DNA of 64,000 nucleotides from an uncultured Ruficoccus sp. (GCA_965140785.1 OZ223481.1:480001-544000), one strand, 5' to 3'; counted from the first letter of the stretch, positions 1 to 30,442 are shown. Translations and numbers: made by a program. Notes: generated by a model not told the origin, from the letters alone.

Positions 1-73
1 ACTAAAAAACACCTCGATTTGTTAAAAAAGGACCTATTATAAATCATTTTTTTAATTGTAACGGGATCGGCCA

Positions 74-98
74 AAGGGGTCAGGCCAATAATTTAAAT
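74..98 (+). repeat. Left inverted repeat of the RAYT unit; part of an imperfect hairpin 75-112
   Basis: AGGGGTCAGGCCAATA...TATTGATTAGCCCCT can fold; matches 1050-1074 in reverse complement. Confidence 0.8.
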
Positions 99-134
99 AT
101 TGATTAGCCCCTGTGTTTGTGCTGAGGTGTGCGT

Positions 135-1055
135 ATGGCAAGGGCTGTTCGCTTTCAGTTTCCGGGTGCGATTTACCATGTGCTCAATCGTGGGAACTAC
201 CGTAAGGATTTGTTTACGGCGGGTGAGAGCGGGGCATGGTTTGTGCGGGCGCTGCAGGAGGCCAGTGAGCAGTGTGGCTGGCGTGTCCATGCCTACGTGG
301 TGATGAGTAACCACTATCACCTGGTGGTGGAGACGCCGGAGCCGAACCTGGTCGATGGGATGCATTGGCTGCAAACGACGTTTGCGAGCCGCTTCAATCG
401 CTCGATGGGCGAGCGCGGGCATGTGTTTCAAGGCCGCTACAAGGCGCTGCTGGTGGCACCGGGTCCTCACTTTACGGGGGTGGTCAATTATGTGCATCTC
501 AACCCCGTACGCGCGGGCCTATGCACGCTGGAGGATTTGAGGAGCTATGGCTTGGGCAGCTATGGCCACTTTTTTCGCAAACATCGTCCCGACTGGCTGG
601 TGCGCGCGGAATTCCTCGGCCAACTGCACCTGCCCGACAGCCTGAAAGGGATGAACACTTACGCAAAAATGCTAGCATTGGCCGATGAGCAAGACCCCGA
701 AAAACGGGCGTCGCTGAGTCGCGAATATTGCCGGGGCTGGCTGATCGGTGACAAGGCCTACCGCGAGCAAGTCCTGGAGCGCATGAACAAGCATGAGTTG
801 CGGGGGAGCCACTGCGGTGACGATGTCCGCAACCTCAACGAGTTTCGTTGGGAACAGGCGCTGGCAGAACAACTCAAGCAGCACGAAAAATCGTCAGAAG
901 ACATTACCCGCGCCCCCAAGGCCGCTGATTGGAAAATCGCAATTGCCCGGCACATGCGCACCCACACCCGCGCCACCAATCCCTGGCTCGCAAAAAAGCT
1001 CTCCATGGGCCATCCCTCACGCGTCAGCAACTTGATATACAATCGCGACATTTAA
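135..1055 (+). CDS. REP-associated tyrosine transposase (Y1_Tnp/IS200-like HUH family)
   Basis: MARAVRFQFPGAIYHVLNRGN start, HUH motif MSNHYHLV, FQGRYKA, catalytic Tyr in YVHLNPVRAG, C-terminal HTH-like region. Confidence 0.9.
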   Translation: MARAVRFQFPGAIYHVLNRGNYRKDLFTAGESGAWFVRALQEASEQCGWRVHAYVVMSNHYHLVVETPEPNLVDGMHWLQTTFASRFNRSMGERGHVFQGRYKALLVAPGPHFTGVVNYVHLNPVRAGLCTLEDLRSYGLGSYGHFFRKHRPDWLVRAEFLGQLHLPDSLKGMNTYAKMLALADEQDPEKRASLSREYCRGWLIGDKAYREQVLERMNKHELRGSHCGDDVRNLNEFRWEQALAEQLKQHEKSSEDITRAPKAADWKIAIARHMRTHTRATNPWLAKKLSMGHPSRVSNLIYNRDI

Positions 1056-1074
1056 ATTATTGATCTGACCCCTT
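1050..1074 (-). repeat. Right inverted repeat of the RAYT unit
   Basis: ATTTAAATTATTGATCTGACCCCTT overlaps the transposase stop codon. Confidence 0.8.
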
Positions 1075-1099
1075 CGGCTCCCTTTGGCTTGATCCGGCC

Positions 1100-1534
1100 G
1101 TGCTACGGCAGGACCTTGAGGCTGCCGGGATCGCTTATCAGGACGAGGAGGGCCGCTATGTGGACTTCCATTCCCTGCGGCATACCTGGGGCACGTTTTT
1201 GCAGGTCAACGGCGTGACGCAGCGCGAGGCTATGGAGTTAATGCGCCATCAGGACGAGCGGCTAACGTCGAAGATTTACACCGACACGCACCACCTGCGG
1301 CTCTTTGAGAAAGTCGAGGCTTTGCCCGCCCTCGAAAAAGGGTCACACATAGGGTCACAGATTTCTGGTAACTCGGGCAAAGTCCTGACAAAACGTGGCA
1401 TAAACAGTCACGATAATTCCGTTTCGGAACCTGTTGAATCTGAGTCGGTTTGCGCCGTTCTGACCCCGCCTGACACAGGCGGGAAAGTGGCGTCCCCACG
1501 GGGAGGTGATGCTTTGAGTCTTCTGTGCTGTTGA
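1100..1534 (+). pseudogene. C-terminal fragment of a tyrosine integrase (older tRNA-Glu island)
   Basis: DFHSLRHT (HxxR), LMRH and catalytic Tyr in SKIYTD present. The N-terminal part with the first Arg is missing (in-frame stop at 1061). The ORF runs into the att repeat. Confidence 0.85.
1484..1504. repeat. att direct repeat, distal end of island (tRNA-Glu 3' end duplicate)
   Basis: AAAGTGGCGTCCCCACGGGGA, identical to 13589-13609. Confidence 0.95.
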
Positions 1535-1630
1535 AAATCAGCGCCTTATGTAATTGTCTCAAGCGGGCGATAGCTACGTTTTGTGACCAAATATATAACA
1601 GGGCAAATGATGGTATGAAAAGGCTAAAAA

Positions 1631-2017
1631 CTAGAAAGTCTCTGGATCGCGTTCGTGGACTTCAGGAATATTGGTGGAAAAAGTGATGGTTGAGTTGTCA
1701 TAATCAATATGAAAATCAACGACTTCATCGTAATCATACTCTGGTATCATATCCTTGCATCCCATATAGGCTTCGCCCCGAAACGAAACATTTAAGTATC
1801 CTTGCTCCGGGTTTTCAAAAGACACATCACCTGCCCAATCTACCCCGCAAAACGTTTCACGTATATTCTGACAAAAGCCTGCGAAAAGAGTTTCTTCCTC
1901 ATCGCTAGATAATTTATCAAAAAATAATTTGATCAGCGCTTCTTTGTCTGAAAGAGCATTGCCTTTAAGTACCTCTAGATCTTCTTCAAAGATGTACTCT
2001 GTTACAGATGCTTCCAT
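1631..2017 (-). CDS. Small, highly acidic hypothetical protein
   Basis: 128-aa ATG-started ORF co-oriented downstream of the HNH gene; about 31 D/E vs about 8 K/R by hand count. Confidence 0.7.
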   Translation of the reverse strand: MEASVTEYIFEEDLEVLKGNALSDKEALIKLFFDKLSSDEEETLFAGFCQNIRETFCGVDWAGDVSFENPEQGYLNVSFRGEAYMGCKDMIPEYDYDEVVDFHIDYDNSTITFSTNIPEVHERDPETF

Positions 2018-2091
2018 TGGTTTAGCAGAACGTTTTTTATTATTCTTTATATCGATTACTTGTATTTTGTTTTATTGTCGATTGATGGCAA

Positions 2092-2727
2092 CTAAGTTTT
2101 TTTAAACCTATCTGTGATCGCTCTAATTCTTGGCAGAAATGTGGAGTCGAACTCTTGTCGAATCATTTCATCTGCGACAAACGGAAGCCTTTTTTGTAAT
2201 TCCGAAAAGCTTATGAAGGAACGAACGTAAAATGATACCCACCTTGTTCTTTCTTCTACCAACCTACTTTTATTTAGCAAGTTGATAGTAGCGCTGTGTC
2301 GCTGAAAGTCGGTTGATGCATTTATTAGAAAAGTTCTAAAATCCAATGTAAACAACCCGTGTGGAATCTCAAAGGGGTCGTCTATGTTGACCGAATCACC
2401 TTTGTCCTGATTTACAAAAGCTCTTGCTAGACGAAAATTATCCCACTCATAAGCCTGATGTGGATTATGACTTTTTGGAATAAAGTGATCCACAGACGAA
2501 TGATCATCGCTCGCCTGAGGATTTCTTGGCATTGGAATCCACGCCGAACAGTAAGCACACACTCCAGAATACAACGTGTATAATTCATTATGAGCACGAC
2601 TCCAATATCGATGGTATTTGAACTCGTGACTCGTAGGATTAGGTGTTCTAGTTAGAAATCTCTGCCCCGGTGTCCTTACCCGCGTGTTGAAGTTAGGGGG
2701 CTCTGGTTGCCGCGTTACTGGTTTCAT
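2092..2727 (-). CDS. HNH endonuclease (Septu PtuB-like)
   Basis: CAYC...SVDHFIPKS...YEWDNFRLA...VNQDKG. ATG at 2727 overlaps the ATPase TGA (ATGA). Confidence 0.85.
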   Translation of the reverse strand: MKPVTRQPEPPNFNTRVRTPGQRFLTRTPNPTSHEFKYHRYWSRAHNELYTLYSGVCAYCSAWIPMPRNPQASDDHSSVDHFIPKSHNPHQAYEWDNFRLARAFVNQDKGDSVNIDDPFEIPHGLFTLDFRTFLINASTDFQRHSATINLLNKSRLVEERTRWVSFYVRSFISFSELQKRLPFVADEMIRQEFDSTFLPRIRAITDRFKKT

Positions 2728-4571
2728 ATCTGAACTCCATGGTCCTCTGCGAATAACAACCAAGTCATCCAGAATTCATCATCAGGAGGTAGAACTTTAA
2801 GTAATTGGTCTGTGAGTTTTTTGACCTCAATCGACGATGCTAGCTTTGGTTCTAATTGAACGGTGCGTGCACGTTTAATTAAAGTTTCAGCATATTTACT
2901 CCTAGGTTCGGCTAGTCCAAATATATCTGAGCTTAGCCAATTATCGACTTTGCCGTGCCGAATGAAATCTTTTTCTTCAAAGTTAACCGTACCGGAGGAA
3001 GTGCAATCTAGGTGAAACGTTTTATCGCTTTCAGAATCAAAAAAACTATCTACAGATGCTAGGACTAATGGAGAATGAGACGCTACTAGTATTTGAATGT
3101 CAATGTCGTCATTCAAACTATTAAAGACACGTATGATTGCAGGTAATAAAATCCTTTGCCACTTCGGGTGTAAGTGTGCTTCAATCTCATCGATTATTAA
3201 AACGATCCTCTGCTCAAATTTATTTCCAGTTTCTCGTGATAATTGTAGATGCCGACTCCAAGTCCAAACAACTAGATAGGCGAGAGTCAGTATTCTACGA
3301 ATTCCCGCTGAGGCCAGTTTTAGGGGGACCTGACCGTACCTGTGTACTATGGAAGGAGTATCTCTGTAGTCTCCAATCAGTCTAATTGGAGGGCCAGCTT
3401 CAATAATCCCCAGGTCTGGTGGGGATAGCTCTTTAAGTGCGAGCATAAGCAGTCGAAACTCGTCGCTATCAGTTGCTTGCCATGAAATCCAGTCTCTGAG
3501 TAGCCCTTCGATAGATGCTTCGTTCCCTTTGAAAACATCGTCTCTTGTAAAGTTCAGGGCTTTTTGACCTATCGCTGTCCTATGCGGGTCCCATACTGAG
3601 AAAGAACCATCCACTCGTGCATAAATGACTAGGCCGGAGAGAGTTGGTCGCTTCCTAGGGGTTTGCCATCGCCCTAATTTTGGTGCAAATTTTAATTCTA
3701 TAGCATCGCCCGGATTATCACTTGATATTTGAAATTTGATAGTTGCGTTCTGGGGGGAAACCGCGCTTGTGGGGTAGGCTTGTTCGGCTGCCCATTCCCC
3801 TGTCAAAGCCCACCATGCCATATCGAGAATGAAGGTTTTGCCCAAACCATTATCTCCTGTGATGAGGTTGAGTCTTTCCCCAAGACTCATTTGAAGATTT
3901 TTGATACAACCAGTTCCATGTGCCTCAAGATAGGATAGTATACCGCCCGATTCGGGTTCAAGATCGGGGGGCGCAGAAAAGTGATTCAGAATGGCATTCG
4001 GTTCGAGGGGCAAGCTGTCGAACTTGAGCCGGTTAGCCAATGGTTGTAGGTCGAATAACTTATTCTGCTCCTCTGCGTTTACGGCGAAATAATCGGTGAA
4101 TTTAGCGATAATATCTGAGCTGGTCGTCTGATCCGACCAAGCCTCTTTTTTGAAAATCCAACACGCCAGAGGCAGCATTGGGATTTTTTTGGAATTTAGA
4201 AGTGCCTGTTGAAGTATGTCTATATAGTTCGGAGACCATCCCCATTTACTGCTCTTTTTCTCATGTAAAAAAGCGCTCTTGAAGGTGCGGGTATTGACAC
4301 TTTGCAATCCTTTTCCGGCATAATCGGGTCGTAGCCAGTCTTGGTTCTTCTCGTTGAACCTTAGCACTCGAAAAAACCATCTTGAACGAGGGTGGATTCG
4401 ATAATGTCTGACTAAAAAGTCTTTGTTCAGGTTATCTAGACTAATATCTATCTGGGAACCGACCGGTAGTCGCACTTCTTTGCAAGAAAGATAGCTTGTG
4501 CCAAAAAAAACATTAAAGTCTTTGAGTAATCTGATGGACTCAAGCAACGAATCTGCTGATATGTATTTCAT
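2724..4571 (-). CDS. ABC-type/AAA_21 ATPase (Septu PtuA-like) with an extra ~200-aa N-terminal domain
   Basis: Walker A GDNGLGKT, signature-like ASAGIRR, Walker B IIDEIEAHLHPKWQR, H-loop ASHSP. Confidence 0.88.
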   Translation of the reverse strand: MKYISADSLLESIRLLKDFNVFFGTSYLSCKEVRLPVGSQIDISLDNLNKDFLVRHYRIHPRSRWFFRVLRFNEKNQDWLRPDYAGKGLQSVNTRTFKSAFLHEKKSSKWGWSPNYIDILQQALLNSKKIPMLPLACWIFKKEAWSDQTTSSDIIAKFTDYFAVNAEEQNKLFDLQPLANRLKFDSLPLEPNAILNHFSAPPDLEPESGGILSYLEAHGTGCIKNLQMSLGERLNLITGDNGLGKTFILDMAWWALTGEWAAEQAYPTSAVSPQNATIKFQISSDNPGDAIELKFAPKLGRWQTPRKRPTLSGLVIYARVDGSFSVWDPHRTAIGQKALNFTRDDVFKGNEASIEGLLRDWISWQATDSDEFRLLMLALKELSPPDLGIIEAGPPIRLIGDYRDTPSIVHRYGQVPLKLASAGIRRILTLAYLVVWTWSRHLQLSRETGNKFEQRIVLIIDEIEAHLHPKWQRILLPAIIRVFNSLNDDIDIQILVASHSPLVLASVDSFFDSESDKTFHLDCTSSGTVNFEEKDFIRHGKVDNWLSSDIFGLAEPRSKYAETLIKRARTVQLEPKLASSIEVKKLTDQLLKVLPPDDEFWMTWLLFAEDHGVQI

Positions 4572-5404
4572 TGGACAGCCTCATTTAAAATATATCTACA
4601 ATAGTCTTCATTGAGTTCGATTCCAATAGCGTTTCTACCTTCGCTAAGAGATACTCGCAACGTAGTTCCGCTTCCTGCAAAGGGGTCAAGGACACTGCCG
4701 CCAACAGGGCAGCCGATTTGAATGCATCGATGGACCAATTCATCTGGAAATGCAGCCGTATCAATCTCACCTCTAACCTTTGGTCTTGGGCTGATAGTCC
4801 AAACGTCTTCATCGATGCGATTGTTCTTTAGGTGTTCCCGATTGAAATAATATCTCCTACTTTTTGCGAACATAAATACAAACTCGTATGACCTCCTTGG
4901 TCGGTCACGCACGGATTCCGGAAGGCATTTTTCTCGATGCCAAATTATTGAGCTTCGCAATACCCACTCGGATTCGCAAAGCCTCATTGCGATTCTCCAA
5001 GGTATCCCTATCAATGATTTTCTTTGTAGTCCGACTCCTAAGCCTCCGCTTCTATCGACTGCCCGTAGTCCGAACCTTCGCTTTTTACTTTTAGCATCCT
5101 TACCCTGCGACTGGCCCTTGCCAGAATAGTAGGTGTCACCTATATTGAGAAAAAATGTTCCCTCTGGCTTGAGGATTCTTTTAAGTTGTTCTCCTACCAA
5201 AAACAATGACTCGACATAATCTGCTATAGAGTTTTCAAGTCCAATCTGACCATCGACCCCATAGTCACGTAGCCAAAAATATGGGGGGGAAGTAATAATG
5301 CAATCTACTGATTCTGAAGGAATTTGCGTGAGACAGTCATGGGCATCCCCGCAATGAAGCTGCCAAGTGTTCCCTGCTATATTTAGTCCATTCCATTGAG
5401 GCAT
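4568..5404 (-). CDS. Site-specific DNA methyltransferase, N4-C/N6-A beta class
   Basis: Catalytic TSPPY precedes SAM-binding LDPFAGSGTT. SPPY suggests m4C. TGA overlaps the ATPase ATG. Alternative TTG start at 5443. Confidence 0.93.
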   Translation of the reverse strand: MPQWNGLNIAGNTWQLHCGDAHDCLTQIPSESVDCIITSPPYFWLRDYGVDGQIGLENSIADYVESLFLVGEQLKRILKPEGTFFLNIGDTYYSGKGQSQGKDAKSKKRRFGLRAVDRSGGLGVGLQRKSLIGIPWRIAMRLCESEWVLRSSIIWHREKCLPESVRDRPRRSYEFVFMFAKSRRYYFNREHLKNNRIDEDVWTISPRPKVRGEIDTAAFPDELVHRCIQIGCPVGGSVLDPFAGSGTTLRVSLSEGRNAIGIELNEDYCRYILNEAVQ

Positions 5405-5466
5405 AAGCTTGATATACAAGTAAATAAAGACGTCGTTGTGCAATCACCAAAATAGTTGGTGTCCGT

Positions 5467-5494
5467 GTTCACAAAAACGACCGTTTCCCTGAAC
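5467..5494. promoter_or_regulatory. Candidate res subsite for the serine recombinase
   Basis: Imperfect palindrome GTTCACAAAAACGACCGTTTCCCTGAAC in the AT-rich gap upstream of the resolvase. Confidence 0.4.
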
Positions 5495-5603
5495 TCCAAC
5501 TCCACTTAGCAGACATATGAGAGAAAAAGGGATTATTGGTTCAATAAACTGGTTTTTAAAAATAGAGTTTACAAAACCAAAATTTCACGAGTAATGTAAA
5601 CTC

Positions 5604-6185
5604 ATGAAGTTTGGCTACGCTCGTGTTTCCACTGCGGATCAAAACCTAGACCTGCAAATTGATGCTCTCCAAAAGGAGGGCTGCGAGAAAATCTTTAAAG
5701 ACAAGATTTCAGGCGCGAAGATCGAGCGCCCGGAATTCGACAAGATGCGCCAACTCCTGCGGGAGGGGGATATTGTCGTCGTCTACAAGCTGGATCGCTT
5801 GGGCAGAAGCTTAAGGCATCTCGTGGAGATTGTCTCTGACTTTCAGGAAAATAAGGTCAGCTTCAAATCCCTGAACGATCCCATTGATACCACAACCTCT
5901 CAAGGGAAGCTGATTTTCAACATATTCGCCTCTCTGGCTGAGTTTGAGCGCGATTTGATCCGGGAGAGGACTCGGGCCGGGTTGGACTCTGCAAGGGCTA
6001 GAGGGCGCCTTGGAGGCCGTCCTAAGGGGCTTTCCGCTGAGGCAGAGCAGAAGGCGATTATCTGCGAGTCTCTATACCGTGAAGGCAAGCACACGGTAAA
6101 CAATATTGCACGTCAACTGAAGCTGTCTAAGGCGACTCTCTACAAGTATCTGAGGCATAGGGGCGTCGAGATCGCCCAATCCTAG
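5604..6185 (+). CDS. Small serine recombinase (resolvase/invertase)
   Basis: GYARVST catalytic Ser, KLDRLGRS, LAEFER, GRLGGRP, C-terminal HTH. Confidence 0.95.
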   Translation: MKFGYARVSTADQNLDLQIDALQKEGCEKIFKDKISGAKIERPEFDKMRQLLREGDIVVVYKLDRLGRSLRHLVEIVSDFQENKVSFKSLNDPIDTTTSQGKLIFNIFASLAEFERDLIRERTRAGLDSARARGRLGGRPKGLSAEAEQKAIICESLYREGKHTVNNIARQLKLSKATLYKYLRHRGVEIAQS

Positions 6186-6240
6186 CCATCATTGGCCGGT
6201 GCTGATTCCCTCCCCTGCGGAACGTGTAGTCACTCCCGCC

Positions 6241-6261
6241 CATTTTGAACCCGGTTCAAAT
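6241..6261. repeat. Island-specific palindromic motif, copy 1
   Basis: CATTTTGAACCCGGTTCAAAT; 20/21 identical to 11398-11418. Confidence 0.8.
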
Positions 6262-6264
6262 GCT

Positions 6265-7437
6265 TCAAAACTTGAGGTTTACATCAGCCTTGAGGGCAGC
6301 CTCTACAGCTTTCCGCATCTGAAGGCGGACTATATGGGCATGTTGCTTCTTGCAGACAATAGAGTCATGCACCGTGCCAAACGGAATTTTGGCCTTAACA
6401 AGCCTTATTCCGACATTATGGATAACTAAGTTCGCTTCCGCGTTCTGAAGGTATATGGCAAACCTTGAGCGATGCCCTTGTTTCTGTGCATCTATCAAGC
6501 CTGAGAGGATTGGGAAAAGCCTTTTCATTGCCTGCCAAAGTTGGCCCGTAGAGGGGGCGCGGTTGAAGAAAATCTGCTGGTAGCAGGCCACTTTGATCTT
6601 TTTACGAATCTTCAGCCTGCCTCCTGCTTCTTTTGCAATCTGAGTGTAGAAGTCCCCTTCAATGAATTTCAAGTAACGCGCCATTTCCTCCCGATGGGCT
6701 TTACTCCGGCGATTATAGAGGGTGGCAGATAGTAGAGGCTGTGCGCTTGGTATATCGACTTCAACCACGTCCTCCCCATCGAGAGTAAGCAACTTCCGCA
6801 TATCTTTTGGCGTACTGGTCAAGGCGTGAAAACAGCGCTTCGATTGGGGAGATTTTGTAAAAAAGCTGCTCTGCCCATTGACGAAGTCGCGACACATCTC
6901 CCGGTGACTTCGCTTACGCTTCTGGTACCGTCGAATGAGGACATCTACGTCGGACTTGAACTTGAATCTCTCCAGATTTTCTCGAATAGCATCATAGGGG
7001 AAGCCGACTGCCAATTCCGGTTGAGTGGCATTGAACTGCCTTACTCGCTTGAGGCACCGAGTATCTACAATCTTCATTTTCAGCTGACGGAGATTGGCGT
7101 AGGCAGGCTTTAAGCGATAACAAATCGATTTCTCTCCGGGAATATATCGGTGATCGCATTCAATCACACCCAAATCTTCCAACATATCTCGGGCCTCTCG
7201 TGCATACCCTTGACCAAGCAGGCGCTTCAGCATCGATCCTTTGATTTGCACCCATCCGTCATCCCCCTCTCTGGAGTATGCAGCTACAAACCCAATCCAG
7301 TTTATCAGGGTAATAAACAACAAAGCTTTGTGATGCCGTTCAACGCGAAGACTGTAATACTGAGGCATTCGCTCCTTCCTGGCGATTGCCCCTAGGTCAA
7401 ACCCCTTTGGAAGTAGGTAATACTCTGGCACCTTCAT
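6265..7437 (-). CDS. Minimal family-A-like polymerase (TV-Pol-like putative primase/replication protein)
   Basis: Motif A-like VEVDIPSAQP, motif B-like RKKIKVACYQQIFF, LQNAEA helix, motif C TVHDSI. No exonuclease domain. Confidence 0.6.
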   Translation of the reverse strand: MKVPEYYLLPKGFDLGAIARKERMPQYYSLRVERHHKALLFITLINWIGFVAAYSREGDDGWVQIKGSMLKRLLGQGYAREARDMLEDLGVIECDHRYIPGEKSICYRLKPAYANLRQLKMKIVDTRCLKRVRQFNATQPELAVGFPYDAIRENLERFKFKSDVDVLIRRYQKRKRSHREMCRDFVNGQSSFFTKSPQSKRCFHALTSTPKDMRKLLTLDGEDVVEVDIPSAQPLLSATLYNRRSKAHREEMARYLKFIEGDFYTQIAKEAGGRLKIRKKIKVACYQQIFFNRAPSTGQLWQAMKRLFPILSGLIDAQKQGHRSRFAIYLQNAEANLVIHNVGIRLVKAKIPFGTVHDSIVCKKQHAHIVRLQMRKAVEAALKADVNLKF

Positions 7438-7487
7438 GAAGTTCCCTTCTTTCCGCTCATAGTTCCGTCTATGATCCCCCCTCCTAT

Positions 7488-7518
7488 TTATGATTCCGGT
7501 TTGAACCCGAAATCATAA
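7488..7518. promoter_or_regulatory. Imperfect hairpin upstream of the polymerase gene containing the TTTGAACCCG core
   Basis: TTATGATTCCGGTTTGAACCCGAAATCATAA. Confidence 0.5.
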
Positions 7519-7602
7519 TTTTAGGTCATTCATGGATATGGTGAACAATCGCTTGTCGCAAGCGTATAGAGCATAGGAGATGAGATGCGGATACTCCTAG
7601 AC

Positions 7603-8346
7603 CTACCAGCTCACGACCCATCGAACGGGTATCTGTTCGGTGCCGTTGTCGCAGTTGGGGCAGGGATACCAGCGGTCGGGGGATTTCCCTTTTTCGATCT
7701 CGCCCCGCAAGCTGCCTTTGCCGTGGCAGAGGGGGCACGGGATGGCTTCGACATCGTAAATGATCAGCGTCCTTTTCCTGTCCCGAAGGATTGAAGTAAA
7801 ATCCGTTTGGCTCAGGCCGTTGCCAGACGGATTAATGTCCGGGGTCCATTCCTGTACTCTGCGTACGGTGCGAGTTGCTCCAATCACGCTCATGTATTGA
7901 TATGTCCCTGCGTCGAAATAGTAGAGGTAGACTTCTTGATCGTCTAAGACCTTGCGGGAATCACCCAACACCAGCGCAACCACTTCGCTGCCATTCGATC
8001 TGGGAGTGGCCAGACTGGGAGCGCCCTTGTAGGGGCTGGCCTGAAAGACTTTAAAGTACCCCTGTTTAGGATAATGGTCAGGGAGAATGATGGGGACATC
8101 GCCGGGGGCGAGATACTGCTTTTGCCAGAGATGAAACAGGCGCAGCAGGGTTTCGCGGGGGTATTTGCTGCTTCCGGTTTCGCCAACCCGAAACTCTCTA
8201 ACGTCCATACGCGCTTCGAAGGACGGGGGTGAACCATAATTTGTCGGGTGGCCTGTCAACGTATCGCCCGCTAGGGGCGAGGTCGCGAAGCTGGCCAGCA
8301 CTACAAGATTGCGCAACAGCATTAACATTCTATTTCCGTCACTCAC
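7603..8346 (-). CDS. Secreted hypothetical protein with C-terminal DnaJ-type zinc-finger motifs
   Basis: Signal-peptide-like N-terminus; CPLCHGKG...CPNCDNG. GTG start overlaps the upstream TGA. Confidence 0.65.
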   Translation of the reverse strand: MSDGNRMLMLLRNLVVLASFATSPLAGDTLTGHPTNYGSPPSFEARMDVREFRVGETGSSKYPRETLLRLFHLWQKQYLAPGDVPIILPDHYPKQGYFKVFQASPYKGAPSLATPRSNGSEVVALVLGDSRKVLDDQEVYLYYFDAGTYQYMSVIGATRTVRRVQEWTPDINPSGNGLSQTDFTSILRDRKRTLIIYDVEAIPCPLCHGKGSLRGEIEKGKSPDRWYPCPNCDNGTEQIPVRWVVSW

Positions 8347-9026
8347 TTTGATTTATCCTTCACGCCCTGAGGCTTCTTGGCCAAGTCCTTGAATTTATCG
8401 AAATAAGGCTGGAAAACAGCTTCCAACCAAAGGCGGTTCGCCATGCGCTGGGCAGCGGCTCCACCTGCGGAAGAGGACGCTTGGGCATAATTGCCAAGGT
8501 CGCTCTCAAGCGAAGACTGGATAAACGCGATTCTCTCCAACAGGTTCTCAGCCTCTATCTTGACCACGTAGCCGCAATAGCGCCGGTAAATGCCGGGGTC
8601 CACATCTGTTCTCTCCCCGCTCACATGGGTGTGATTAGCCCTTCTGCTGGCTTCCGTGTATTTGACGGGTTGCGGGATTGTATTGGCGGGAAAGTCGTTG
8701 ATGAGTGTCTGAATCTTTGCCTCAAGCGCTTCGTGCTGCTGGCGTTTCTGCTCGACGAACTTCCGTGTGGGAGCATCGAGCATTTCCAGCGGAATTGTTA
8801 CCTTCATTGGGTCTCCTTTCACATCCCGGTAGTCCAACCGCTCAACGATTACGGATGTATCATCGGCAGAGATATAAATGCCCTGAATCGAACGCCCATC
8901 GACAGAAGTAAACGTATCAGCGGGAGCGGCTTCCTCAGTATTCCCTTGGGCCGCATGCAAGGGGTAGAGAGAAGTTAGCAGGATCAGGACACCCACAGGA
9001 TACATTTTCAAATGCCGTAATTTCAT
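8343..9026 (-). CDS. Secreted protein with SHD1-like domain
   Basis: Signal peptide ending LHA; TFTSVDGRSIQG...IPLEMLD resembles the SHD1 domains common in PVC bacteria. Start uncertain (up to 9080). Confidence 0.6.
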   Translation of the reverse strand: MKLRHLKMYPVGVLILLTSLYPLHAAQGNTEEAAPADTFTSVDGRSIQGIYISADDTSVIVERLDYRDVKGDPMKVTIPLEMLDAPTRKFVEQKRQQHEALEAKIQTLINDFPANTIPQPVKYTEASRRANHTHVSGERTDVDPGIYRRYCGYVVKIEAENLLERIAFIQSSLESDLGNYAQASSSAGGAAAQRMANRLWLEAVFQPYFDKFKDLAKKPQGVKDKSK

Positions 9027-9180
9027 CGGGAGGGATGGCATATTTGCGCTTCCCGTATGGGGCACGCTGTATGAGTTCATCCCGTTTTTTAGCCCGCTAG
9101 TTAGATGACAGGCAACCTAAAAATGCTACGTATATGGTGTAGATGTATTTGCATCAAAAAGATATTCTACCTGCGCAAGC

Positions 9181-9411
9181 ATGGGGACAGAGGCAAAGAA
9201 GGAGTTACGACAACTTGGCGAGGCGATTCGAGTCGCCCGCAAGCAGATGAATGTTAGCCAAGAAGACTTTGCCGAATGGTGCGACCTTCACCGAACCTAC
9301 ATCGGCCATGTCGAGCGTGGAGAGGTCAATGTCTCGTTCAGGAATGTCCTGAAGATCGCCGCCGCGTTGAAGATGAAGCCTTCTGTCTTGCTGGATGCGG
9401 CGAATCTTTGA
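9181..9411 (+). CDS. XRE-family HTH regulator (R-M controller C-protein-like)
   Basis: SQEDFAEWCDLHRTYIGHVERGEVNVSFRNVLKIAAAL. Confidence 0.9.
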   Translation: MGTEAKKELRQLGEAIRVARKQMNVSQEDFAEWCDLHRTYIGHVERGEVNVSFRNVLKIAAALKMKPSVLLDAANL

Positions 9412-9685
9412 TCGATGTTTGCTCCCTGTGCTTCTGTAAGCAGCGGACAAATTCATCTTCTGTGATTCTCACAGCCCATACCTCTCCTAGAAATTCGGCA
9501 TCTGGGGCAATATTATGGGTAACGTTCAAAACCTTGAAGTAACCTTGATCGTAAATTTCGATCTCTTCGCCTTGGCATGGTAGTCGAAGAACCTCATAAT
9601 ATTCATGGTTCTTCCAGACTGTCGAACCCGGTTCATGGGTGTGGAGGTATATTTTTACCGTAGGTATCATATGGTTGTTTTTCAT
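9338..9685 (-). CDS. Hypothetical protein downstream of terL
   Basis: ATG 5 bp after the terL stop; 3' end overlaps the convergent XRE gene. Confidence 0.45.
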   Translation of the reverse strand: MKNNHMIPTVKIYLHTHEPGSTVWKNHEYYEVLRLPCQGEEIEIYDQGYFKVLNVTHNIAPDAEFLGEVWAVRITEDEFVRCLQKHREQTSIKDSPHPARQKASSSTRRRSSGHS

Positions 9686-9689
9686 AATT

Positions 9690-10997
9690 TTATGCTAGCG
9701 CTATGGTTGACCTTGGCCGGTGATAGAGGGCTCCCAGCACGGCGTCAGCCCGATCCGGGGAAGACAGGCCGCGTGCGTGTAGTTGCGCCTTGGGTTCGAT
9801 CTGGACCTGTCCCCGGCTGTTAAGGGTGTACTGACGCGAGACAAGCTGCTCGTGGAGGAGTTTATCGGGCGGAAGGATGATTCCCCCTGTCTTAATCTTT
9901 TCCGCCCCTTCCAGCCAAATCTCTGTCCCCATATTGGCGTAGGCTTCGCTGTTCTTGGCCGGTTTCTCGTTGCGGATGCGGTTCACCTTCCACCCCTCTT
10001 CTTTCAGGCGGTCGCAGATGGGGATTCCGAGCCCGGAGCCATCGGCGCTGATATCTTGGGGCGTGAGCCCATGTTCGCGGAAGAGGCGGATGAACTCTCC
10101 GACTGCGGACATGGTGTCCCGCTCCCGCCATGCCTTGGCGATCTGGACGCGATTGCCGCGCCGGATAGCCAGGACATTTTCATCGCCCCCTGCCGCGAAG
10201 TCACAGAAGGCGTGTGTCTCGCCATCGGTGAAGGGGGTTTGCGCCTGTAGACACTGCTCAAGCGCGGATAGGGGGACAACGCAGCGGTCCCCGTCCTGTT
10301 CGGGGAACTCCGCATGGATCATGCTGCGAACGAGCGGGCTGTCTTCCCCGTATTTTTCAATCTGTTCGTCGATCCATTTCTGGGGGATATGCGGGCAGTC
10401 AAAGGAGGTTACCGTGAAAGGACGGAAGAAGCGACGCTCGGTGGTAAATGCCCGGTAGAACTTGCCCCGGCGCGGGCCGGGCGAACTCATCAGGAGGACA
10501 CGCGTGGGCTGGCAGCGGTCTATCGCCTCAAAGATTTCATCGGGGATGGACTTGGCTTCGTCGCAGATGACGAGGAGGTTGTCGTTGTGCCAGCCTTCGA
10601 AGCGCCCCGGATCATCAGTCGAAAAGCCGTAGATGCGTGACCCTGTGGGCGTCTCGACTTCGGTTTCCAGAAATTTCCAGTGCGGGAAAAGGTGCTGATA
10701 GGCGCGGATGCCGGGATAGAACTGTTCCTTGACCTGACGGAAGACGCCCGCCGTAACCAGCGTCATACTGCCGGGGAATACGGCAGCATGCCAGAGTGCG
10801 AGCGGGACACCTAGGCTGGAGGTCTTGCCCGTGCCGTTTCCCGCCTTGATGGCAACGGAGCTTCCCCGCTTATCCAGCGCCGCTAGGGCGTCCTGCTGCC
10901 ATGGGTATAGCTCCATGCCCAAAACGCCTCTGGCGAAGCCGTAGGGCAGGTGTAGGAGGCTTGCAGGGTCATTCGCTGTCGGTGCTGCTGCCTTCAT
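9690..10997 (-). CDS. terL: Phage terminase large subunit
   Basis: LYPWQ Q-motif, Walker A GNGTGKT, Walker B VICDEA, coupling motif SSP, nuclease FCDFA...ADGSGLG...SPDRADA. Confidence 0.9.
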   Translation of the reverse strand: MKAAAPTANDPASLLHLPYGFARGVLGMELYPWQQDALAALDKRGSSVAIKAGNGTGKTSSLGVPLALWHAAVFPGSMTLVTAGVFRQVKEQFYPGIRAYQHLFPHWKFLETEVETPTGSRIYGFSTDDPGRFEGWHNDNLLVICDEAKSIPDEIFEAIDRCQPTRVLLMSSPGPRRGKFYRAFTTERRFFRPFTVTSFDCPHIPQKWIDEQIEKYGEDSPLVRSMIHAEFPEQDGDRCVVPLSALEQCLQAQTPFTDGETHAFCDFAAGGDENVLAIRRGNRVQIAKAWRERDTMSAVGEFIRLFREHGLTPQDISADGSGLGIPICDRLKEEGWKVNRIRNEKPAKNSEAYANMGTEIWLEGAEKIKTGGIILPPDKLLHEQLVSRQYTLNSRGQVQIEPKAQLHARGLSSPDRADAVLGALYHRPRSTIALA

Positions 10998-11400
10998 AGC
11001 GCTTTCTGGCCTCCGCAATCGCGTTCAGTGTGGTCTCATCGATCCCCAGCCGATGATTGATCGTCCCCTCGTGCCGGTGGGCAACCTCTAGGCGGCTCTT
11101 GGCGAAGTGTTCCGGGCGCACATGCTCCAGCCACCATTTGGCGGCGCTCAGGTCTCCGGCGTCTATCGCTTCCCGTATCGCCTTCAGGCGGGTTGCCACG
11201 CCCCTAGCCAACGCCTTGTCTATGGCCTCAGAAAACTCAGGAAACTTCCGCCGCCATTCGCAGAAGGTCTCATAGGAAATCCCTGCCAGCGCCGCCGCAT
11301 CCTTTAGGGGGAGCCCGTCCCCGATGTGTTCAAGGATGTCCTTGGTCAAGGCGGGCGTCCGCTTCGACGGCCTGCCGCATTTTCTGGTTTTCGTACGCAT
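10969..11400 (-). CDS. terS: Putative terminase small subunit (HTH)
   Basis: GRPSK...KDAAALAGISYETFCEWRRKFPEFSEAI...AAKWWLE; overlaps the terL start. Confidence 0.75.
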   Translation of the reverse strand: MRTKTRKCGRPSKRTPALTKDILEHIGDGLPLKDAAALAGISYETFCEWRRKFPEFSEAIDKALARGVATRLKAIREAIDAGDLSAAKWWLEHVRPEHFAKSRLEVAHRHEGTINHRLGIDETTLNAIAEARKRYEGSSTDSE

Positions 11401-11418
11401 TTTGAACCCGGTGCAAAT
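11398..11418. repeat. Island-specific palindromic motif, copy 2, overlapping the terS ATG
   Basis: CATTTTGAACCCGGTGCAAAT. Confidence 0.8.
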
Positions 11419-11572
11419 TTTGGAAGTTAAAGCGGGCTGCCTATGCCACCTTAACTTACGCAACCCCTACCGGGTTAATAATGTCCGCCAGAAATAGTGT
11501 CAATACATATTGTTGATAGCAAACAGTATGTAACAGATTAGTTGTCAATGGCCGCCTTGTCTTGTCAGGCGT

Positions 11573-13480
11573 TCAGCTCTGTTGAATCTGATAAATGTTC
11601 GGCTTTCTTGTCGGGCGTAATTTATCCAGAGAGAGCCGCTTAAGGTCCAAGCCATAATCGACTTTCTCAATGGCGGTCTTGAGATATTTAATAGTGGGAG
11701 CCTTTTTGTGGATATAATTACTCCTCATCGCATGTTCAAAGAACTTCCTTTCTTGGGTGGACCAGCCGCATAGGGCATCAATGATTCCCAGCTCAAGACC
11801 TGCCTCATGACATGCCGTTGCAAACGTATGCCTAAAGGAATGGAAAACGAGTTCTCGGGTTTTTATTGAGGCGAGCTTTTTAAGGACAACTTCATTGAAC
11901 CATCGCGATACGCCTTGGGGGCGTAGGTTTGGGAAAAGTCTTTGGGAGGTAGGCTCAATGTTTCGTTTGTAATCCATCAAGCCGAGAGCCAGTAGCTTGC
12001 TATGAACGGGAACAACCCTCACGCTGCCCGGTGTTTTTGCTGACTGTCCTTCCTTCGCGTTCGTGATCGAAAAACTGTAAATCTTGTCCTGCTCGACGAT
12101 CTGATCGCAATGAAGCTGGCAAATCTCGCCAAGACGGGCTCCCGTGTAGAGCGCGATTAGGGGCACCCAGAAATATCCGTTATGGATGATGTGATTGCCC
12201 GGACAATTTCGTCGTTTAAGGTTTTTGCAACCGGTGTAGGAGGGGACGGAGAATATCTTCCTGAGCATGTCTGCCTTGAAGGGTTCTCGGACTATGGAGG
12301 CGCTAGCTGTATCTCTCCGGGCATTATTCGTGAATCTGTAGTTCGTTGCCCAACACTTATCGATCAGTCCGGTTTCTTCTGCGAACATGAATGCTCCCCG
12401 TATCCTTCCGAGGGAATTATTGACCGTGTAGTTGTTTCGCCGTGTATCGCCGTCTTTATCTGCGATCTTGATGCATTCTCCATACGATTTACCGAGATAT
12501 TTCTTTCCCGTTCTCGGGGGTAACGCCGCGATCTGCTTTTTTATCAACTGAAAATCATCATAGGTCAGGGTCTTGATGTCTTTGTCTCCAAGGAATTCCA
12601 CCATGACCTCCTTTGAGGTATTCAAATCCGTGCGGATTTTTTTAGAAATTTTTCCTTCTCCCTCAGACTTCTTATACTCTTCGTAGCGTGTGAACAACTG
12701 GGAGATCGTGACCTTTGGCCTTAGCGCTTCATCTGCGATGTGCTCTTGAGGGACTGAAGCGACCATGGCGGCTTCAAGCTTTGCCAATTCCTTGGGGTAG
12801 AAGGGGGTGCTCAAGCGCTTGTCGAGGCAATCCAGCTCCCATCTATGGCATTCGTCCAAGATGCTCCACATGAGGCGGGACAGCTTCTTAAAGCATTTCC
12901 CATCCTCTCGAAGGTGGATATTGTTATCCAAGCAAATTTGCTTGGCCGCTATGACATGCGGCAAGTCGTCATGCCTGCGCCGTCGATTCGAGTGAAGGTC
13001 GTGTAACTCTTGGTGGAGATCGGCCTTGAAGTCCTGAACCTTGCCGGAGACATACTCGGATTCCTTTTCATCTATGGCGATGTCGATAAAATTGAGGAGC
13101 ACATCCCTTTCATTGCTGAACCAATTTTCAAACCACTCATCGATCATCGCGAATAGCTGAGATAGCGGGACTGCATCTATCGGTGCGATTTCCGCGAGTT
13201 TGGCTGTCAATTTGGCATGATGGGAAAGGATATTCTGCCTAAACGGGTGGCGTGGCTGCTGAGTCAGCCTGCGGGCGTCTTCGATCTGCTGATCGAATGT
13301 GGAGAGATTCTTCCGGTGCTGCTTTTCAATCTCTGCGGCAGGTCCGCCGCCTATCTGGACTGTGAGGTATTTTTTACCGATTACGGGCTGCACATCGGCA
13401 GGGACGGGATAGCGGCTGAAGTAGGCTTTTCGTTGCTTGCGAAACGTCAAATATTTGGCCTTGGGCACGGCTTCTTCCAT
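11573..13480 (-). CDS. int: Tyrosine recombinase/integrase
   Basis: YTGARLGEI (R), SAKT (K), FHSFRHT (HxxR), LCGW, RSNY (Y); adjacent to tRNA-Glu. Confidence 0.95.
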   Translation of the reverse strand: MEEAVPKAKYLTFRKQRKAYFSRYPVPADVQPVIGKKYLTVQIGGGPAAEIEKQHRKNLSTFDQQIEDARRLTQQPRHPFRQNILSHHAKLTAKLAEIAPIDAVPLSQLFAMIDEWFENWFSNERDVLLNFIDIAIDEKESEYVSGKVQDFKADLHQELHDLHSNRRRRHDDLPHVIAAKQICLDNNIHLREDGKCFKKLSRLMWSILDECHRWELDCLDKRLSTPFYPKELAKLEAAMVASVPQEHIADEALRPKVTISQLFTRYEEYKKSEGEGKISKKIRTDLNTSKEVMVEFLGDKDIKTLTYDDFQLIKKQIAALPPRTGKKYLGKSYGECIKIADKDGDTRRNNYTVNNSLGRIRGAFMFAEETGLIDKCWATNYRFTNNARRDTASASIVREPFKADMLRKIFSVPSYTGCKNLKRRNCPGNHIIHNGYFWVPLIALYTGARLGEICQLHCDQIVEQDKIYSFSITNAKEGQSAKTPGSVRVVPVHSKLLALGLMDYKRNIEPTSQRLFPNLRPQGVSRWFNEVVLKKLASIKTRELVFHSFRHTFATACHEAGLELGIIDALCGWSTQERKFFEHAMRSNYIHKKAPTIKYLKTAIEKVDYGLDLKRLSLDKLRPTRKPNIYQIQQS

Positions 13481-13588
13481 GGGCTAATTGTTACCAGATT
13501 TGTAACCAACGCCAAGGAGATAGCTTTCGTAAGAAGCTGGTTTCCAACAACCTGTTGATGCCCAAAAACTTTTGCCACTTAAACTTGA

Positions 13589-13609
13589 AAAGTGGCGTCC
13601 CCACGGGGA
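13589..13609. repeat. att direct repeat, tRNA-proximal
   Basis: Identical to 1484-1504; overlaps the tRNA 3' end. Confidence 0.95.
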
Positions 13610-13670
13610 TTCGAACCCCGGTCGCTGGAATGAAAATCCAGTGTCCTAGACCTGACTAGACGATGGGGAC
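13593..13670 (-). tRNA. tRNA-Glu (UUC)
   Basis: Reverse complement GTCCCCA...CTGGA-TTTTCAT-TCCAG...GGTTCGAATCC...TGGGGAC-G-CCA forms a cloverleaf. Confidence 0.97.
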
Positions 13671-25549: not shown

Positions 25550-25623
25550 AGGTCCGTGGTGTAATGGTAGCACAGCAGTTTTTGGTACTGCTTGTCGGGG
25601 TTCGAATCCCTGCGGACCTGCCA
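25550..25623 (+). tRNA. tRNA-Gln (UUG)
   Basis: AGGTCCG acceptor / CGGACCT-G-CCA; anticodon arm GCAGT-TTTTGGT-ACTGC; GGTTCGAATCC. Confidence 0.96.
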
Positions 25624-28434: not shown

Positions 28435-29145
28435 TTATTTAAAATCGTCGATCGTCGGCAGGTTGCTGGAGAACTGAATGTCGCCCCAGCTTTCCTCGCC
28501 GCCACCGCCGGCATTGGCGGGTTCGCCGGCCGCGGGGGTTTTGTCGATGATGTGCTGAGCGATGGCCTTTTCGATGGCGTTTTCGGCCCAGTAGCCATTG
28601 CGCAGTTCCCAGTCCGAGGGCTCGTAGCCGTATTTTTCCAGCACGGCCAGGATAATGGAGGATTCCGGGGTAGCGCTGGTGCCAGCGAGCAGGCCTTTTT
28701 CCTCGTGCCGCCGGATAGCCTCAGCGGCGATAAAGGGTGGCAGCACCCGCTCGTAGCTGGGATGGACAGTGTAGTTGCTGGCCCAGCGGGACCAGGCTTC
28801 ACGCGAGATGGAGCGTTCGGTGCCGGTAACGGCCTCGTAGTAGTAAACCCGCCGCTTGGACATGCGTTTGACCAGGGCCACCGTGGAGAGGCCGTCCTGG
28901 GAGATTTCCAGCCAGTCGAGCGGGCGGGGTTTTTCCACAGGACTGCGGGTGCCGGAGATGTCTTCCGGCGCTTCGAGGAACTTCACCCCGAGGGCGCGGG
29001 AGAAGCGGACAGTCTGCTCAGCATCACGGCTCAGCGTCAGTTGTTCCTGGGAGATCAACTCACTTTGGTACTTGGCTGCGTCCTCGGCGGACTCGGCCCA
29101 GATGTACGTCACGATTTCCGTACTGACTTTGTATTTACGCATCAT
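28435..29145 (-). CDS. Hypothetical protein with Gly-rich linker and acidic C-tail
   Basis: 236-aa ORF with host-like codon usage, ends GGGGEESWGDIQF...DDFK. Confidence 0.7.
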   Translation of the reverse strand: MMRKYKVSTEIVTYIWAESAEDAAKYQSELISQEQLTLSRDAEQTVRFSRALGVKFLEAPEDISGTRSPVEKPRPLDWLEISQDGLSTVALVKRMSKRRVYYYEAVTGTERSISREAWSRWASNYTVHPSYERVLPPFIAAEAIRRHEEKGLLAGTSATPESSIILAVLEKYGYEPSDWELRNGYWAENAIEKAIAQHIIDKTPAAGEPANAGGGGEESWGDIQFSSNLPTIDDFK

Positions 29146-29551
29146 GGCGGGGGGGCAATCTAGGGGTTGTGGGCATCATCAATGCCCGGATGGGAGAGTT
29201 TGATATCAACCGTTAGGTTAGAGGTGGTCAAACAAAAAGTTTTAACACTCCCACCTTCTGTATGAATGAACTAATACTAACCTGACCATTTGCTAAAAGT
29301 CTTTGATGCTCTAGTCCTTCCAGTAGTTCTTTCTCTGTTATATACATAATTTTTACTAGTCGGACTAGGGAATGGGCCGCATGTTATTTTTAGCCTCAAT
29401 CTGTTATGCTGAGTCCCCTTAGACTCCTGTTAATCAATATGATTCCGGTTCTTCTTTCGAGGTGCGCTGTGCATTTTTTTATCTGGAAGAATAGGAAAAA
29501 CTCCTTAGTCTCTGATCTTTTGACTCGTTACTGTTTGAGAACCGCGTCCCC

Positions 29552-30442
29552 ATGCCACGTAAAATCTGCTTCGTAAACTACAAGGGCGGTGTCGGGAAAA
29601 CCTCGATGATCGTCAATATCGCCGCCTGCCTGTCTCAGAGCGGCAAAAAGGTCTTGCTTGTTGACTTGGATACGCAGTCCAACGCCAGTATCTGGCTGAT
29701 GCGTTTGGATCGCTGGAACAAGTTGAATATCAACGGCGAGGGGTCTGTTTTCTCGATTTTTGATCCCGGCGAGCAAACGTTGAAGGAGATCCTGGTCAGC
29801 GACGTGGTATCCAGCAAGACGGGTGAAAACCTCCTTCCCGGCTTCGACCTGCTGCCCACCACGTTCAACCTCGTGGACCTGGAAAACGAGTACCCGGCCG
29901 ATCCTTCCGAGCCGCCCTACCTGCGCTTCTACCGCCAGTTGAGGGAAATCGAGGCCAACTACGACTACATCCTGTTCGACTGCCCGCCGAATGTCCTGCG
30001 CGCCTCCCAGTGCGGCATCTTCTCCAGCAACGAAATTTACGTCCCGGCCAACCCCGACGCCCTCAGCCTGATCGGCTTCACCCTGCTGGTGGAGAAGCTC
30101 CTGCTCTTCCATCAGCGTTCGGCCAGCTTCCGCGAGCCGGGGATGGGGCGGCCCGCTCTGTGCCGCGGCGTCATTTTCAACTCGATCAAGGCCAATGTCG
30201 ACATCGAGGTTCCGAAGATGCGTATGCAGCTACGTATCAACCAATTCCGAAACCAGCGGAGGATTGATCCCGGCACCAAAATCTTTACCTCCCAGATTCG
30301 GGACGCCATGGTGGTACGCCGGGCGGTGACGCTCGGCCTGCCCGTCAACCTGGTCGGTCAGGTCGCCAAGGAGGAAGACTCCGTCGCCACCGATTACCAA
30401 CACGTGGCGACCGAACTTGATCAGCACGAGGTAATGGCTTAA
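29552..30442 (+). CDS. Orphan ParA/MinD-family ATPase
   Basis: KGGVGKT deviant Walker A, DLDTQSNAS, DCPP. Confidence 0.93.
   Translation: MPRKICFVNYKGGVGKTSMIVNIAACLSQSGKKVLLVDLDTQSNASIWLMRLDRWNKLNINGEGSVFSIFDPGEQTLKEILVSDVVSSKTGENLLPGFDLLPTTFNLVDLENEYPADPSEPPYLRFYRQLREIEANYDYILFDCPPNVLRASQCGIFSSNEIYVPANPDALSLIGFTLLVEKLLLFHQRSASFREPGMGRPALCRGVIFNSIKANVDIEVPKMRMQLRINQFRNQRRIDPGTKIFTSQIRDAMVVRRAVTLGLPVNLVGQVAKEEDSVATDYQHVATELDQHEVMA

Follow-up and report, generated by a model that had tools for sequence, protein, structure and literature searches.

A 12.1-kb island was analysed in a 64,000-nt stretch of one strand from an uncultured Ruficoccus sp. (GCA_965140785.1 OZ223481.1:480001-544000). 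The whole stretch is called the window below, and positions are counted from its first letter. The island (1484-13609) encodes a tyrosine integrase (Int) and both terminase subunits, TerS and TerL. An earlier reading of the sequence alone, here called the original prediction, had proposed a distinct satellite class with the layout int, terS-terL, polymerase (Pol) and defence cargo, which brings its own packaging motor to helper procapsids.

The island and its terminase pair

The boundaries of the island and the genes on which its interpretation depends are the following.
1484-1504, no strand: att copy distal from the tRNA, a 21-nt duplicate of the tRNA-Glu 3' end
13589-13609, no strand: att copy overlapping the 3' end of tRNA-Glu(TTC) (exact repeat; tRNA call)
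11573-13480, minus strand: tyrosine integrase of the long N-terminal type, 635 aa (PF00589 E 5.4e-12; phrog_1 E 7.4e-31)
10969-11400, minus strand: small terminase TerS, overlapping the terL start (phrog_4102 E 3.4e-22; longest open reading frame (ORF) to 11463)
9690-11018, minus strand: large terminase TerL (phrog_2 E 1.6e-23; longest ORF 442 aa, probable start ATG at 10997)

The island is site-specifically integrated in tRNA-Glu. The att repeats are as perfect as first described: a 21-nt exact direct repeat at 1484-1504 and 13589-13609 bounds 12,126 nt, and it is the sole exact repeat of at least 21 nt within the window, its core occurring twice in the whole 4.36-Mb genome. The repeat is the 3' end of an intact tRNA-Glu(TTC) gene (13593-13670, minus strand). 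An empty site was seen in the same-genus genome G246, where the counterpart of window positions 1100-1504 (93% identical) is joined straight to the tRNA. The GC content was 0.489 within the island, compared to 0.618 in the rest of the window.

The catalytic motifs, claimed to be intact, were found in both enzymes. The integrase has R449, K482, H547-x-x-R550, W573 and Y589, which we take to be the tyrosine-recombinase catalytic set. In TerL, residues K65 (Walker A), D153-E154 (Walker B), S178-S179, D273, D279, D326 and D422/D425, the aspartates being those of the nuclease, are intact, and across 47 relatives they vary little or not at all; both active sites are thus kept. The best PDB hits of a profile of 64 TerL sequences were solved large terminases, namely 8dkr (E 2.7e-6), 5c10 and 4idh; the same search with TerL as a single sequence retrieved nothing, and the fold is assigned on the basis of the profile matches and the motifs. 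We take 8dkr to be the terminase of phage E217, and 4idh and 5c10 to be gp2 of the headful packager Sf6.

TerS probably starts at the ATG at 11400, giving 143 aa, and its match to the Pfam family Sf6_terminase (E 5.8e-6) fell just under the cut-off. The modelled TerS-TerL complex scored 0.76, compared to 0.00 for the best of three controls, with a contact agreement between runs of at least 53% and a partner pLDDT (predicted local distance difference test) of at least 51. The score mark applied is reached by 116 of 157 solved complexes and by 2 of 215 mismatched pairs, and the score itself may reflect likeness to solved complexes known to the model. In the predicted arrangement, the C-terminal helix of TerS docks on the N-terminal ATPase domain of TerL.

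Read from the tRNA inward, the gene order is integrase, TerS, TerL, a 115-aa protein, an XRE regulator, two proteins with hydrophobic N-termini, the 390-aa polymerase, a serine resolvase, a methylase, Septu PtuA and PtuB, and a 128-aa protein. These 13 ORFs occupy 11,096 of the 12,126 nt (91.5%) and leave at most 172 nt between neighbours, which is the largest gap. The statement that the island is filled by ORFs other than portal, capsid, protease or tail genes was upheld, as no match to any of these was found within the island by Pfam (15 proteins), PHROGs (14) or NCBIfam (12). Since Int, TerL, Pol and PtuA are the sole ORFs of at least 300 aa, there is no room for a portal; the four proteins assigned to no family are all shorter than 250 aa.

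A portal-less TerL family

TerL homologues numbered 1,519 in one search, the best being 50-75% identical. Loci were compared from genomes (46), metagenomes (best 80 of 168) and IMG/VR (best 80 of 422; best 80 of 232), using portal, scaffold and major-head profiles made from those of the loci that belong to phages, with names assigned through PHROGs and Pfam. A portal or capsid match was obtained in none of the 52 loci whose TerL is at least 52.3% identical (window included, duplicates not removed); at least 2 kb of downstream sequence is available for 34 of them and at least 5 kb for 23. Among more distant TerL loci with at least 2 kb downstream, a portal was present in 102 of 102. Both counts cover the 46 genome loci, the best 80 of 168 metagenome loci, the best 80 of 422 IMG/VR loci and the window.

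The portal tests each missed one real portal, that of L259 being overlooked by the local profile and found by PHROGs, and that of genome G312 the reverse, so the att-bounded loci provide the stronger evidence. L259, from genome G327, had been considered as a second portal-less lineage and was rejected on finding, by PHROGs, the portal 6.7 kb downstream.

There are 19 att-bounded members, of which 18 span 7,236-15,256 bp (median 10,400) and the remaining one, L354, 14.1 kb. They occupy 14 different named tRNA or tmRNA targets, and their integrases are divergent, with a median pairwise identity of 34.8%, that of the window not exceeding 27% identity to any from the other 17 elements; from the number of targets and this divergence it follows that the elements move. 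In 16 att-bounded relatives, PHROGs detected no portal, major capsid or tail gene in 126 of 157 picked ORFs, the other 31 (TerS, helix-turn-helix (HTH), resolvase and methylase homologues, antisense shadows and ORFs below 100 aa) having been left out of the scan.

In a careful TerL tree of 55 rows, the 27 portal-less rows fell into one clade, which had a support of 99/96 and was recovered in 99% of 200 bootstrap trees. Its sister group (99/98) consists of 19 rows that do have a portal, and the clade is nested within a wider set of phages and prophages. A quick 80-row tree agreed with this one. The careful tree drew its rows from the quick one, without those that had short flanks and without five that were long or distant; its outgroups were G636 and G598, and the root is not firm. 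Nine of 11 extra genome regions appear to repeat known loci and were not counted. The simplest reading of the clade is a single capture from phages. In the sister phages the gene order is terL-portal-scaffold-capsid, and many of their contigs measure 39-43 kb.

Most records of the family are assigned to Verrucomicrobiota, the phylum to which the host presumably belongs as well. A TerL within the score range of the clade (at least 580 bits) was found in 9 of 401 sampled genomes of the class and in none of the four other genomes of the genus. Most mapped relatives share the order int, excisionase-like HTH gene, replication gene, terS-terL, cargo.

The terL gene is, by codon comparison, under purifying selection. 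The median ratio of nonsynonymous to synonymous substitution rates (dN/dS) was 0.175 and the maximum 0.29 (Nei-Gojobori; 445 of 1,081 pairs with 0.05<dS<2, pairs not independent). When the window was set against its three closest relatives, the proportion of synonymous differences (pS) was 0.77-0.81, which is saturated, and that of nonsynonymous differences (pN) 0.15-0.21.

These data bear on whether the island is a decayed prophage, or a capsid-forming phage-inducible chromosomal island (cf-PICI) stripped of its head genes. Such an origin would be compatible with the descent of the TerL clade from phages with terL-portal-scaffold-capsid, with the weak prohead-protease-like gene that one subclade retains after terL, with the frameshifted or truncated terL in 5 of the 52 loci, which may represent decay or assembly error, and with island-type scars in two genomes of the genus (G401 and G402). 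Against it, the loss of head genes is clade-wide and, judging from the saturated pS, old; 19 members, at many different targets, have kept their two att sites intact; and not one member yielded a fragment of a portal or capsid gene. Complete prophages as closest relatives and relaxed selection on terL had both been named beforehand as findings that would refute the satellite idea; both were looked for and neither was seen, the nearest kin forming one clade of loci that are not complete prophages and terL being under purifying selection. Decay is therefore very improbable as an explanation and already largely refuted.

The subclade just mentioned (L129:11389-13483, L131:11450-13248 and L174:9047-11042) has a DUF5681-type protein in place of the small terminase, and after terL the prohead-protease-like gene (phrog_328 E 2.2e-5; Pfam Mu-like_Pro E 0.001-0.003 in three of three, below cut-off) and a protein with a HEAGH motif. 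It is possibly a step towards manipulating head maturation.

Exchangeable replication genes, cargo and dyad repeats

The polymerase and the repeats that accompany it are located as follows.
6265-7437, minus strand: minimal family A polymerase, 390 aa (invariant residues in 60 homologues; AlphaFold model; Foldseek)
11398-11418, no strand: 21-nt repeat, first copy, with a 15-nt dyad at 11402-11416, directly before the terS ATG
6241-6261, no strand: 21-nt repeat, second copy, with a 15-nt dyad at 6245-6259, just after the Pol stop codon

The minimal polymerase suspected at first reading proved well founded. Foldseek searches with its AlphaFold model (pLDDT 93.8) gave matches to PDB entries of family A polymerases (best E 1.6e-4, TM about 0.37) and to the model of a putative phage Pol I (E 3.4e-17, TM 0.67). 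Residues R201, D228, Q233, K282, Q331, E334, H357 and D358 are invariant in 60 homologues, and R278 is kept in at least 90%. The layout comprises a TV-Pol-like core and an N-terminal helical or winged domain, with no exonuclease. No named family was matched, including in the ESM Atlas, and no primase-helicase was matched among the window proteins (Pfam, PHROGs), the PolA-fold enzyme being present instead.

TV-Pol is defined by a conserved arginine hairpin, two palm aspartates, the fingers motif RxxxK and the family A fold, as given in the available part of PMC2579912. The island enzyme has R201, D228, D358, K282, R278 and the family A fold, and thus shares with TV-Pol the minimal core, template arginine, palm aspartates, RxxxK and setting in a mobile element. 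A minimal family A core in a mobile element likewise recalls the CCPol-type primases, as far as these are described in the consulted portion of 10.1101/2022.12.02.518924. Unlike in TV-Pol and CCPol, no D5 helicase or single-stranded DNA-binding protein partner was recognised beside the island Pol, and the N-terminal domain differs. The enzyme is likely a primase-polymerase, with a putative priming or polymerizing activity. Its own family is large and unnamed (2,736 representatives at E up to 0.001); a convincing Pfam match was obtained for none of 60 aligned members, and close structural matches occur in marine phages.

Across the TerL family the replication genes vary, being primase/helicases, phage initiators, a Rep_trans-like protein, this Pol, or none recognised. 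Cargo in relatives includes methylase, Z1/HSP90-like and MmeI-type genes. Within TerL-clade loci, Pol is present in two distinct elements only (the window and L162/L163). It was found in 5 of 401 genomes of the order, and the three such loci that were checked (L361, L362 and L363) have the same integrase family, Pol, the resolvase and the dyad, with no TerL in the sequence examined. Pol was therefore rejected as the defining gene of the class. The layout put forward in the original prediction stands in its int and terS-terL part, which is the family core; the replication gene and the cargo are exchangeable. As Pol and the resolvase are common to islands without TerL, the window is a mosaic of an Int-Pol-resolvase backbone and a terS-terL module. 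In L361 a TerS-like gene stands alone directly after int, which makes it a TerS-only sister. This 8.7-kb tmRNA island (L361:3337-12067, genome G126) has Pol at 54% and resolvase at 77% identity, a homologue of the 128-aa protein and the same integrase family.

The optional nature of the terS-terL module, evident from these backbone islands, would also suit an anti-phage role, in which the pair jams or out-competes the motor of related phages or cuts the DNA of these phages, and the island spreads otherwise. The islands do bear defence genes (Septu here; the methylase, Z1/HSP90-like and MmeI-type genes in relatives), and packaging is a known target of interference in the available parts of PMC11417361 and 10.1101/2025.02.27.640495. 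A decoy, however, would have no need of the ATPase and nuclease sites together, yet the two are invariant or nearly so in 47 sequences, and in most mapped members the pair lies right after the replication gene, co-oriented with int and outside the variable cargo. We consider this role unlikely as the main function; interference and self-packaging are not mutually exclusive.

The dyad precedes terS in the window, L110, L111, L162/L163 and L121. The strict pattern has two occurrences in the genome, both inside the island, and the relaxed pattern two or three copies in each of the three TerL-less sister islands, frequently ahead of Pol or behind int. The first five copies had already been seen when the pattern was drawn, and the background of the relaxed form was two hits in the genome and two in 1.27 Mb of phage loci. 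A role of the dyad before terS as a pac site or terminase-specific element was rejected, since it recurs in islands without TerL. The two repeats (6241-11418) bound a 5,157-bp segment that holds terS, terL, cargo and Pol; joined at the repeats, the window would read Pol-dyad-terS, which is the order in L162/L163. This suggests that the gene order in the window may have arisen by recombination at the dyad.

The other genes of the island are listed here.
1631-2017, minus strand: acidic protein of 128 aa, no family; L110 (46%) and L361 (38%) have homologues close to their distal ends
2092-2727, minus strand: Septu PtuB HNH nuclease (PADLOC PtuB E 1.1e-49; longest ORF reaches 2763)
2724-4571, minus strand: Septu PtuA ATPase, 615 aa (PADLOC PtuA E 5.9e-197; Pfam AAA_21)
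4568-5443, minus strand: N6/N4 DNA methyltransferase, overlapping ptuA (Pfam N6_N4_Mtase E 4.1e-45; PADLOC MTase_II)
5604-6185, plus strand: serine resolvase/invertase, 75-77% identical to its counterparts in L110, L162 and L361
7603-8346, minus strand: 247-aa protein with hydrophobic N-terminus and C-terminal CxxC pairs, no family
8343-9080, minus strand: 245-aa protein with hydrophobic N-terminus, no family
9181-9411, plus (opposite) strand: XRE helix-turn-helix regulator (Pfam HTH_3 E 9.6e-12)
9338-9685, minus strand: 115-aa protein directly after terL; homologues at the same position in L139 and L156

The adjacent PtuA ATPase and PtuB HNH genes place the defence system in Septu, and it is not the retron form here, as no reverse transcriptase was matched by Pfam or PHROGs. 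The 247-aa and 245-aa proteins are likely exported cargo, judging from their N-termini. Genes similar to the XRE regulator also sit after terL in L110 and L111, and the 115-aa protein matched no named family in the ESM Atlas.

To the left of the island lie the 3' end of an older integrase gene, then a Y1 transposase, then host-like sugar and sulfatase genes. The transposase (IS200-like; window 70-1078) is placed between 29-nt inverted repeats and interrupts the older gene. In its 3' end (1100-1534) this gene shares 91% identity with the integrase of another island, 7.3 kb long, which occupies the corresponding tRNA in G246. In two further genomes of the genus, scars of about 130 and 60 bp remain beside an att copy (G402, L249:17724-17880, and G401, L252:13165-13254, respectively); they correspond to the integrase-side end of this island type, without the int body or TerL. 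Elsewhere in the window, a tRNA-Gln(TTG) was noted at 25550-25623 and a local GC dip to 0.50 at 29001-30000.

Relation to known satellites and the proposed packaging route

The comparison with published satellites is based on the available parts of the cited sources. Phage-inducible chromosomal islands (PICIs) carry TerS and use the TerL of the helper, and terL tells cf-PICIs from PICIs (PMC10085698). The present family resembles PICIs of the SaPI/EcCICFT073 kind in the order of integrase, regulator, replication gene, small terminase and cargo, in the position of terS, and in size (median 9.5 kb for PICIs, compared to 10.4 kb here), and neither has tail or lysis genes in that account (PMC10085698). 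In contrast to PICIs, these islands encode their own intact TerL. A capsid-morphogenesis gene was not found; in PICIs it is frequent in Proteobacteria and absent in SaPIs according to the same portion of the source (PMC10085698). The present copy further differs in having a PolA-like enzyme rather than a primase-helicase, and no AlpA after int. Its integrase and small terminase are PICI features; an XRE HTH gene lies after terL, and the stretch from int to terS holds no regulator gene. In many relatives int is followed by an excisionase-like gene, and several have primase/helicase or initiator genes.

With cf-PICIs the family shares TerS plus TerL, and a TerL that falls in satellite-only clades apart from phages (10.1101/2022.09.08.507074, PMC10085698). 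cf-PICIs, as presented in the accessible text, also encode capsid, protease, portal, connectors and a packaging HNH protein, and steal tails only (10.1101/2022.09.08.507074). None of this head set was found in the window, and relatives have only the weak protease-like match of one subclade. No packaging HNH gene precedes terS, the sole HNH gene being that of Septu PtuB, 7 kb away. As the island is without all the cf-PICI head genes, its TerL would have to dock on a foreign portal. P4-like satellites carry Sid, Psu, Delta and an alpha primase-helicase, none of which was matched by Pfam, PHROGs or NCBIfam. The island would work like a PICI, but on the features tested it belongs to none of the PICI, cf-PICI and P4 groups.

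Looser parallels exist. VEIMEs and PICMIs, which are likewise small and integrative, travel as concatemers inside helper heads of full size (PMC9618062; PICMI via PMC12822802). Genes for TerS and DNA polymerase occur in part of the VEIMEs, and a link to Verrucomicrobia is given for some; the part of the source available names only small terminases, and the helper is presumed to supply the large subunit (PMC9618062). Vibrio PLEs manipulate the packaging motor and have no capsid of their own, but are without TerL in the available part of PMC11417361. EPIPs of Mycolicibacterium are 11-kb satellites with integrase and TerS; they differ in their serine integrase, head-tail adaptors and tape measure protein, with no TerL among the genes listed in the consulted section (PMC12822802). 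Haloarchaeal satellites with the capsid protein and/or ATPase of spindle-shaped viruses, in the available portion of 10.1101/2025.02.15.638363, are a loose parallel.

Taken together, the island is probably a phage satellite that packages itself into helper procapsids with its own headful motor. The integrase would excise it, and in this copy the PolA-like enzyme would prime or copy it. TerS would recognise a pac-type site within the island, and TerL would cut, dock on the helper portal and fill the head by the headful route. Since there is no size-redirecting protein, the 12.1-kb unit would be packed as about three tandem copies per head of about 40 kb. Septu and the methylase would be cargo that benefits the host. 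The likely helpers are podovirus-type phages of about 40 kb whose TerL is the sister group. A candidate of the likely type is an apparently complete temperate podovirus-type prophage of about 40 kb in the host's family (G312:C11:30800-70200, L256-L258), with a related TerL (43%), a portal, a scaffold-like gene and a major head protein.

Several observations weigh against this interpretation. The check for excision or packaging gave nothing positive: no attP or attB joint was present in two of two public runs, which come from one study, include no long-read virome with this DNA and offer contigs only; as contigs drop rare forms, this result tells neither for nor against excision. In run X1, one 15.2-kb contig spans 1034-16000 at flat depth, and in run X2 coverage is patchy; one of the two runs is possibly from the source sample, and the lower depth of X2 in the island was not used as evidence. 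No AlpA or excisionase-like gene lies between int and terS, where there is only a 172-nt gap, and L110 is without both an excisionase-like gene after int and a recognisable replication gene. No helper of the sister family was found in the host genome, which is 90.85% complete. Since the nearest phage TerLs are only 45-52% identical among the matches listed, docking on helper portals is an assumption. The local portal profile, built from phage loci, misses other portal families. Among the IMG/VR matches listed in four scans, two contigs belonged to the clade (L303/L353 and L354), one of them tRNA-integrated, and no virion-derived record of the clade was present. The broken terL copies described above belong to the same side of the balance.

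The lack of an excision joint would agree with packaging in place from the integrated island, in the manner of lateral transduction or of a gene-transfer agent, so that mainly cargo and neighbouring host DNA, rather than replicated copies of the island, are moved. So would the missing excisionase-like gene of this copy and the missing replication gene of L110, and lateral transduction by phages and PICIs is published (in the available parts of PMC12829572 and PMC8575950). This course is nevertheless quite improbable: excisionase-like and replication genes are retained in most members, the 14 target sites and many host families need excision and re-integration, and packaging that starts near terS and runs downstream would presumably leave int behind.

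Heads might also come from nearer by. Hidden head genes in the DNA beside the island were considered and rejected, as none was found, and local portal, scaffold and capsid profiles gave nothing against 44,317 six-frame segments of the genome. The host does have a Mu-like head cluster at host GC (G000:C32:38500-48100, L255:4762-13757), with genes for a gp27-like protein, TerL, Mu portal, protease, cement, major head protein, gp36 and a LamG protein. Neither a transposase nor a tail gene was recognised among the eight proteins scanned, and the cluster looks like a domesticated, possibly tailless unit of the gene-transfer-agent kind. Its terminase, portal, protease, cement, capsid and gp36, together with a Mu-type portal in 14 of 16 genomes of the family, could in principle make it the capsid source for the island. 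It has, however, its own unrelated TerL (best tblastn E 0.23); genome G411 has two clade-range TerL matches (731-737 bits) and no Mu-type portal match; and the ancestral phages of the island TerL carry an SU10-type portal. The resident cluster is hardly credible as the source.

In the literature, where subscription journals and supplements were mostly outside coverage and VEIME datasets S5/S6 could list TerL-bearing elements, no account was found of a satellite that has both terminase subunits but is devoid of head genes. The islands are well supported as a family, and self-packaging is their proposed mode of spread. There is an even chance that it represents an undescribed, old class, whose TerS-TerL motor was captured once from Verrucomicrobiota phages of about 40 kb, is portable among islands with unrelated integrase and replication genes, and plugs into helper portals, stealing empty heads and leaving the helper terminase untouched. 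Such a class would be a step between TerS-only and capsid-forming PICIs.

The satellites described in the sources consulted either borrow the large terminase of the helper or build whole heads. Finding a terL match in a cellular contig should not be taken to indicate a prophage, and models based on known satellite core genes would probably misfile islands of this kind. If the proposed route is true, a motor-only strategy would mean a TerL working with portals with which it did not co-evolve, and terminase-portal specificity would become testable through natural mismatched pairs. It would also give Verrucomicrobiota an added route for moving defence genes.

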